DNA from: Gammaproteobacteria bacterium
GTDB taxonomy: Bacteria > Pseudomonadota > Gammaproteobacteria > Poriferisulfidales > GCA-002705445
Reading direction: 5' to 3'
Assembly: GCA_029268385.1 (NCBI GenBank)
Contig: JAQWPG010000009.1
Coordinates: 6,077-70,076 of the forward strand
DNA length: 64,000 nucleotides
Shown here piece after piece: positions 8,688-9,285 of the stretch. The translations under genes were made by a program, and so were the position numbers. Position 1 is the stretch's first letter, and each line of letters opens with the position of its first letter. Under the pieces are notes generated by a model. The model made no database searches and was not told the DNA's origin. It worked only from the letters and a program-made list of their open reading frames with translations.

Positions 8688-8690
8688 AAT

Positions 8691-8936
8691 CTACCTCTCT
8701 ACGCCTTTAGTTACAGCCCAATCGCGCGGTCTAAGGAAGTCAGTGTACAGCCGAGATTCTTCAGTCCCTGGTAACGGAGCCCAGTCATACACCCAACGAA
8801 CAGAAGGCGGAAGTGACATCAAAATCGATTCTATCCGGCCCACACCAGACTGAAGACCAAAAATAGTTCCTCGGTCGTAGGCAAGATTGAACTCTACATA
8901 ACGTCCTCTTCGATATTGTGGTGTAGCTGGTGGTAT
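8691..8936 (-). pseudogene. hemF: Oxygen-dependent coproporphyrinogen III oxidase, C-terminal roughly 80 codons only. Truncated at the composition break.
   Basis: The reverse frame reads ...[81 protein letters not shown]. This is the HemF C-terminus. In the upstream direction the frame hits TAA at 8937-8939, so about three-quarters of the gene is missing. The hemF-aroE adjacency fits gammaproteobacteria. Confidence 0.8.
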
Positions 8937-8945
8937 TTACTCATT
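8931..8945. other. Abrupt compositional and phylogenetic breakpoint. Moderately GC-rich DNA on the left meets very AT-rich DNA on the right, and truncated genes abut on both sides.
   Basis: Seen directly. GC-rich codons dominate to the left. To the right, third codon positions are mostly A or T and lysine-rich poly-A runs appear. hemF is cut on the left and the Liv permease is cut on the right, within about 10 bp of each other. Confidence 0.8.
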
Positions 8946-9267
8946 TTTATATATTGGCAATGTTGATTTAATGATCTATGAGGTTGACCGTTCATTCACA
9001 ATCTTATTCATGCTAATTATTGGAGGTCTTGGTTCTATATCAGGGTCATGGTTAGGAGCAATATTTGTTTACGAATTCCCAATTATATTTACATGGGTAG
9101 GCGATTTTATATTCCAAGGTGCATTCAATACGGCTGTTGTAGAAAATGTTTCTAATATGGTTTATGGTGTATTTATTATTGCACTATTAATTAGAGAGCC
9201 GGGTGGTTTTGCGGCATTATGGGCAACAACAAAACAAAAATTAAGAATGTGGCCATATCCACACTAA
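8941..9267 (+). pseudogene. Branched-chain amino-acid ABC transporter permease (LivH/LivM family), C-terminal roughly 100 aa only. The N-terminus is absent.
   Basis: The frame encodes ...DRSFTILFMLIIGGLGSISGSWLGAIFVYEFP...FIIALLIREPGGFAALWATTKQK, the typical C-terminal end of LivH/LivM permeases. No start codon or N-terminal TM region is present, and the frame is closed by a stop that lies inside hemF-derived sequence. It sits immediately upstream of livF. Confidence 0.7.
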
Positions 9268-9285
9268 AAAATAAGAGGAAAAAAA

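Follow-up and report, generated by a model that had tools for sequence, protein, structure and literature searches.

MDA produces chimeras in which more than 70% of the junctions start at 2-21 nt of complementarity. These chimeras are mostly intramolecular inversions within 10 kb, and where the partners lie more than 10 kb apart, complementarity is found in only ~28-35% (Lasken and Stockwell 2007, PMC1855051). Misassembly gives rise to chimeric contigs in MAGs, an error class that is recognised though rare, and rarer than mis-binning (GUNC authors, PMC8201837).

The window analysed here, a 64,000-nt stretch of gammaproteobacterial DNA, contains a joint that shares features with both systems. 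Like MDA template-switch chimeras, it carries at the junction a short sequence that the two partners share, its 6 nt fall within the 2-21 nt range, and intermolecular joins of that kind occur in either orientation. Unlike the inversions that dominate MDA products, it joins two genomes. The likeness to the chimeric contigs that GUNC targets in MAGs is closer: two blocks differ in lineage and composition, each block runs collinear with a real genome of its own, the breakpoint cuts through genes, and the junction is unique to one assembly. The usual cause of such contigs is shared conserved or repeated sequence, whereas only 6 nt are common here, which leaves as the cause either a chimeric read or a merging step that works on short overlaps. 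The abrupt change in GC content and codon usage is also seen at the borders of genomic islands and other horizontally transferred DNA. Unlike such a border, the joint lacks a tRNA, an integrase, a direct repeat and an IS; the genes carried are core respiratory and biosynthetic ones, arranged as they are in the donor; the two genes at the border are cut short; and the junction is found in neither parent population. The joint belongs to the recognised class of chimeric MAG contigs, and differs from the textbook case only in that a shared repeat is missing.

Mapping of the breakpoint

The natural contexts of both sides of the joint were recovered through exact protein look-ups in public assemblies. 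Twenty-nine independent loci reached the joint, 12 matching the left side (parent A) and 17 matching the right side (parent B). The BLAST ends agreed in all 29 loci, with left-type alignments ending at 8919 and right-type alignments beginning at 8914. Base-level alignments placed the joint at 8914-8919, where a shared hexamer, TATTGT, forms a 6-bp overlap found in both parents. At this position parent A reads ...CTTCGATATTGT followed by TGAAAC..., parent B reads ...GCTTCTATTGT followed by GGTGTAGC..., and the window, aligned against both parents, reads ...CTTCGATATTGTGGTGTAGC... across the joint. An earlier note, made from the letters of the window, had described a sharp compositional joint near 8.9 kb. 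The observation holds and all of its main elements were seen, and the base-level alignments moved the breakpoint from ~8,936-8,941 to 8914-8919, ~25 nt further left.

Overlaps of at least 6 bp occurred in 0.21% (P = 0.0021) of 1 million simulated blunt joints between these parents. Word comparison showed that the longest exact word common to the two parents within 500 bp of the joint is 10 nt, and across the whole 14-21 kb loci it is 15 nt; the whole-locus comparison found no common words of 21 nt or more. The 64,000-nt window contains zero N bases. An Rfam scan of the window detected only three tRNAs, none within 4.9 kb of the joint and the nearest at 13874. Direct and inverted repeats flanking the joint were at chance level only, and no integrase, transposase, IS end or target duplication was present at the joint, where the flanking genes are aroE, hemF, livM and livF. 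The earlier statement that the boundary carries no tRNA, integrase, direct repeat or IS end was thus confirmed, the repeats being those expected by chance. One point is corrected: the two parents do share sequence at the boundary, the 6-bp TATTGT overlap. The border of a genomic island or of a site-specific integration was considered and rejected, given the lack of a tRNA within 4.9 kb, the chance-level repeats, and the lack of an integrase or transposase.

Base composition changed at the same place. The GC content was 44.6% in 1-8913 and 29.8% in 8920-64000; it fell from ~45% to ~30% between 8.8 and 9.0 kb and stayed low from there to the end of the window. Sliding tetranucleotide profiles gave a single change point in the window, and GC3 was 0.38-0.50 (~0.45) in genes on the left and 0.18-0.28 (~0.21) in genes on the right. 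Beyond the breakpoint, parent A contigs continue at ~41.5% GC and parent B contigs at ~34% GC, each keeping its own composition. The switch in composition and codon usage coincides exactly with the breakpoint, as is looked for in a chimera. The GC, tetranucleotide and GC3 measurements therefore bear out the step in base composition and codon usage that had been noticed earlier, and the sliding-window analysis that had been proposed as a check places the one change point at the joint.

Two truncated genes meet at the joint

Both genes at the joint are represented by their 3' ends. Positions 8691-8919, read on the minus strand, code for residues 244-318 of a 318-aa coproporphyrinogen III oxidase (HemF). 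This stub matches PF01218 with E = 9e-29 over profile positions 230-295 of 295, and was aligned to the full-length HemF of one parent A locus (L011). It has no N-terminus and no start codon, and holds the last 75 residues only. The plus strand contributes, from 8914-9270, residues 248-364 and the stop codon of a branched-chain amino-acid ABC permease of 364 aa (LivM). This stub of 117 residues, without an N-terminus of its own, is 100% identical to the end of the full-length livM in one parent B locus (L001); PF02653 matches it over profile positions 191-268, a weak match on the stub alone. Upstream, the livM frame is closed by a TAA at 8899-8901, within hemF-derived DNA. A 98-aa ORF with its stop (8971-9270, plus strand) is left in the livM stub, and is annotated in public records as 'hypothetical protein P8L38_04035' (MDG2171910.1).

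Pfam matches and full-length alignments agree with the earlier reading that only the 3' ends of hemF (minus strand) and of a LivM-type permease (plus strand) are present, and the permease frame does terminate in hemF-derived sequence. The sizes given to the stubs, ~80 and ~100 residues, are replaced by ~75 and ~117. The TAA at 8937-8939, described as the end of the hemF frame, does lie in that frame; it belongs to livM-derived DNA read on the other strand, as do the residues 'IPPATP' in the hemF frame.

The left side derives from an OM182-like bacterium

The parent A segment (1-8919) carries the 5' end of polA, sco1, ctaB, coxB, coxA, two cox3-family genes, cox4, aroE and the hemF stub. It is collinear without gaps with 11 loci from independent assemblies (L011-L021), which are 98.8-99.4% identical to 1-8919, and every one of these alignments ends at 8919. 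The twelfth left-type locus is a relative at 81% identity, and its alignment also ends at 8919. Ten of the left-type loci came from the look-up of a 224-aa Cox3-family protein (6733-7407), whose 90%-identity cluster includes proteins of OM182 bacterium BACL3. The AroE of parent A is 97% identical to a protein from a Tara Oceans MAG labelled 'uncultured Gammaproteobacteria bacterium'. The source of this segment is an OM182-like marine gammaproteobacterium of ~45% GC.

An intact hemF followed by sua5 was present in nine of these ten left-type loci (L011-L018 and L020). The encoded protein has 318 aa and is called as 309 aa in L018. In the tenth, L019, the contig ends within hemF, 545 bp past the joint. 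Left-type contigs that are long enough continue from hemF into sua5, def, fmt, rsmB, trkA and trkH.

The oxidase operon of parent A (2912-7814) encodes a CoxB of 452 aa fused to c-type cytochrome domains, two separate Cox3-family proteins (203 and 224 aa) and a Cox4_pro protein. NCBI naming of these proteins is inconsistent, with both 'cbb3-type' and 'c-type cytochrome' in use.

The right side derives from a low-GC gammaproteobacterium

The parent B segment (8920-64000) derives from a marine gammaproteobacterium of ~30% GC, and carries livF, rraA, aceA, icd, dnaX, recR, nadB, lepA, mfd, and ccm, rib and moa/moe genes. It is collinear with loci L001-L010 and L036-L051, which show 96-100% identity over 8914-22631, 25806-49243 and 52502-64000. 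The two intervals that no comparison locus covers, 22632-25805 and 49244-52501, are uniform in composition with the rest. The window holds only one joint.

Look-up of LivF (9286-10086) returned contigs in which livG, livH (309 aa), livM at its full length of 364 aa and livF are followed by rraA, isocitrate lyase, isocitrate dehydrogenase and onward in the order of the window. Look-up of isocitrate lyase added longer contigs, one of 1,098,683 bp, with the same intact liv operon. All 17 right-type loci that reach the joint carry further livM sequence upstream of 8914, and livH and an intact livM precede livF in all right-type loci that extend far enough, with livH and livM called in pieces in three right-type assemblies in which gene splitting is widespread. 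Parent B proteins also occur in independent NCBI MAGs labelled 'Gammaproteobacteria bacterium'. As had been expected, the two halves matched different organisms in the BLAST searches and look-ups, with OM182-like bacteria on the left and these low-GC MAGs on the right.

Some right-type contigs combine 'contig_N' names with split genes, and look like long-read assemblies. In L041, L043 and L046 many genes are split, among them livG, livH, livM, dnaX, recR and nadB, which looks like long-read indel error and not pseudogenisation. The 1,098,683-bp contig of the low-GC parent is L043 (JGI 3300046170), and its 1.1-Mb length suggests a small, streamlined gammaproteobacterial genome.

Several further features of parent B were observed. 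In the region ~4-8 kb upstream of the position equivalent to 8914 in L040-L048, a gene for a 603-aa AMP-binding (acyl-CoA ligase-like) protein lies directly before the liv operon, and a gene for a formaldehyde-activating enzyme (Fae, PF08714) lies further upstream of it; no periplasmic binding-protein gene adjoins livG in these loci. A cluster at 26313-31085 contains an SCO1-like gene, an SBP56 homologue (27082-28437), SCO1/SenC, a CCP/MauG di-haem peroxidase and a thioredoxin-like redoxin, with Pfam labels taken from the matching genes in L036. This cluster may resemble methanethiol-oxidase (MtoX-type) gene clusters. A tRNA-Ser(GGA) at 13874-13961 overlaps the start of the longest mechanical ORF at 13936-14427 (163 aa); in most other assemblies the matching gene is called as 148 aa and starts past the tRNA.

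The joint lies within one deposited contig

Protein accessions place the joint within a single deposited NCBI MAG contig of 121,739 bp with the locus tag prefix P8L38. The accessions run in order on the left side (SCO1 MDG2171902, CtaB ..903, CoxB ..904, CoxC ..907 and Cox4 ..908) and on the right side (livM stub ..910, LivF ..911, RraA ..912, ICL ..913, DnaX ..918, Mfd ..941 and MoeA ..972). The 121,739-bp contig is the longest listed for CtaB, CoxB, CoxC, the livM stub, LivF, DnaX and Mfd, and is the only contig of CtaB and of the livM stub. In the protein collection, the exact 98-aa stub sequence has NCBI as its only source and a single contig as its location; the annotation there is of a complete internal ORF, and not of a gene cut off by the end of a contig. 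Since proteins from both sides are on the 121,739-bp contig, the joint is not a product of the building of the window, and since it is inside one deposited contig, mis-binning alone cannot be its cause.

The hemF stub has no protein accession. Accession MDG2171909 fits AroE. The exact 271-aa AroE of the window (7872-8687) is missing from the protein collection and from the gene-position index, while the protein collection does contain its neighbours from the same NCBI record; MDG2171909 probably starts at another codon there. The 132-aa PolA fragment was not in the protein collection, in keeping with a contig that continues to the left of the window.

Discussion

The joint is very probably artefactual, an inter-genome chimeric contig made from two marine gammaproteobacteria. 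In every locus that reaches the joint, the parental sequence reads on across the breakpoint into the remainder of the gene that is cut in the window, with the gene neighbours and the GC content of its own organism, and the junction was present in 0/29 independent loci. A junction 51-mer and a junction 32-mer (CGTCCTCTTCGATATTGTGGTGTAGCTGGTGG) were not found in genome_contigs (185,579 species-representative genomes), viral_contigs (IMG/VR) or metagenome_contigs (JGI); this absence is weak evidence if the event was confined to one population. We infer that read support across the joint is missing. The earlier note had named the same hemF'/liv' junction in an independent isolate or assembly as one of the observations that would overturn its reading, and neither the 29 loci nor the three collections contain it. 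Its proposal that two gammaproteobacterial genomes had been joined by mis-assembly is supported, in that the two sides have matches at 96-100% identity in different organisms, bar the relative at 81%, and the labels of both halves agree with it. It had offered mis-assembly, a binning or scaffolding chimera, and concatenation together; of these, the chimera stands, mis-binning alone falls because a single contig is involved, and blind concatenation is disfavoured (P = 0.002). The view that the joint does not look like a natural genomic-island border is likewise borne out by core genes in donor order and by the absence of any mobile-element hallmark.

The proposed origin is that DNA of two co-occurring marine gammaproteobacteria would have been joined end to end at the 6-nt overlap TATTGT (8914-8919), cutting mid-gene through hemF on the parent A side and livM on the parent B side, and that the joining would have occurred during sample processing or assembly and not in a cell. 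Two routes may account for this. In one, a physically chimeric molecule would form by template switching, the nascent 3' end ...ATATTGT annealing to ACAATA on the other genome, after which the assembler would use the chimeric read to connect two dead ends where coverage was low. TATTGT, at 6 nt and above chance (P = 0.0021), lies within the 2-21 nt of complementarity that marks template switching. In the other, a scaffolding, gap-closing or contig-merging step after the assembly graph would link contig ends through a minimal overlap; some scaffolders may join ends that overlap by as few as 6 nt. The two routes are nearly balanced, and we lean slightly towards template switching. A 'k141_' contig name occurs in MAG JAQWQD, the prefix of which resembles those of two left-type MAGs (JAQWYP and JAQWJB); the name is a hint, and not proof, that MEGAHIT was the assembler. 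MEGAHIT rescues singleton k-mers through 'mercy k-mers' (PMC8021871).

Two other technical origins were weighed against this joining at a short overlap. Collapse of a de Bruijn or overlap graph on shared sequence of at least k-1 nt is, in general, a familiar origin of inter-genome chimeric contigs in metagenome assembly. With no more than 6 nt common to the parents at the joint, there was no repeat on which the graph could have collapsed, and the longest common words, 10 nt near the joint and 15 nt across the whole loci, are below any usual k; this origin is for practical purposes excluded. Blind concatenation of two contigs by a binning or scaffolding script, at submission or when the window was cut, would account for two genes that break mid-sequence as they do at contig ends, and the 15-point difference in GC is typical of bin contamination. 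It is nevertheless very improbable, since an overlap of 6 nt or more is expected in just 0.21% of blunt joints, which makes blunt ligation unlikely as well; no N spacer is present, and the proteins of both sides and the 98-aa stub, a complete internal ORF, are recorded on a contig of the same 121,739 bp.

The remaining alternative is biological: a genuine, very recent, microhomology-mediated illegitimate recombination between an OM182-like bacterium and a low-GC gammaproteobacterium, which would have truncated livM and hemF. Core genes spanning at least 9 kb (the cox operon, ctaB and aroE) would have entered the low-GC genome, or the reverse, and would have been caught before their composition drifted. 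Short microhomology is a signature of natural illegitimate recombination and 6 bp is within its usual range, so that the overlap alone cannot separate artefact from biology. Both organisms are marine and both come from Tara Oceans samples, with different runs (ERR598965 for parent A and ERR594325 for parent B), and the presence of the joint in a deposited contig means that at least one assembler path backs it. Against this, the junction is in none of the 29 independent loci and the three collection scans were empty. The supposed insert is made up of core housekeeping genes that keep exactly the order of the donor, is ~99% identical to contigs of the free-living donor, and shows no drift toward the composition of the other side. 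Neither border gene survives, and livG and livH, from the upstream end of the liv operon, are gone. The joint is accompanied by no tRNA, integrase, IS or target duplication, and a single border is visible. We consider such a recombination improbable, and joining outside the cell remains the preferred reading.

The joint is almost certainly a data-quality problem and not a biological feature, and its biological importance is small. The public 121.7-kb contig (P8L38, proteins MDG21719xx) mixes two organisms, and the record is worth flagging. It is also a clean case of an inter-genome chimera without a shared repeat, of a kind that repeat-aware misassembly checks would miss and that checks of lineage per gene or of composition would catch. 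For later users of the record, the risks are that the cytochrome oxidase operon, aroE and polA are assigned to the wrong lineage, that a false horizontal transfer is called, and that the spurious 'hypothetical protein' MDG2171910.1, which is merely the livM stub, is inherited by later annotations.
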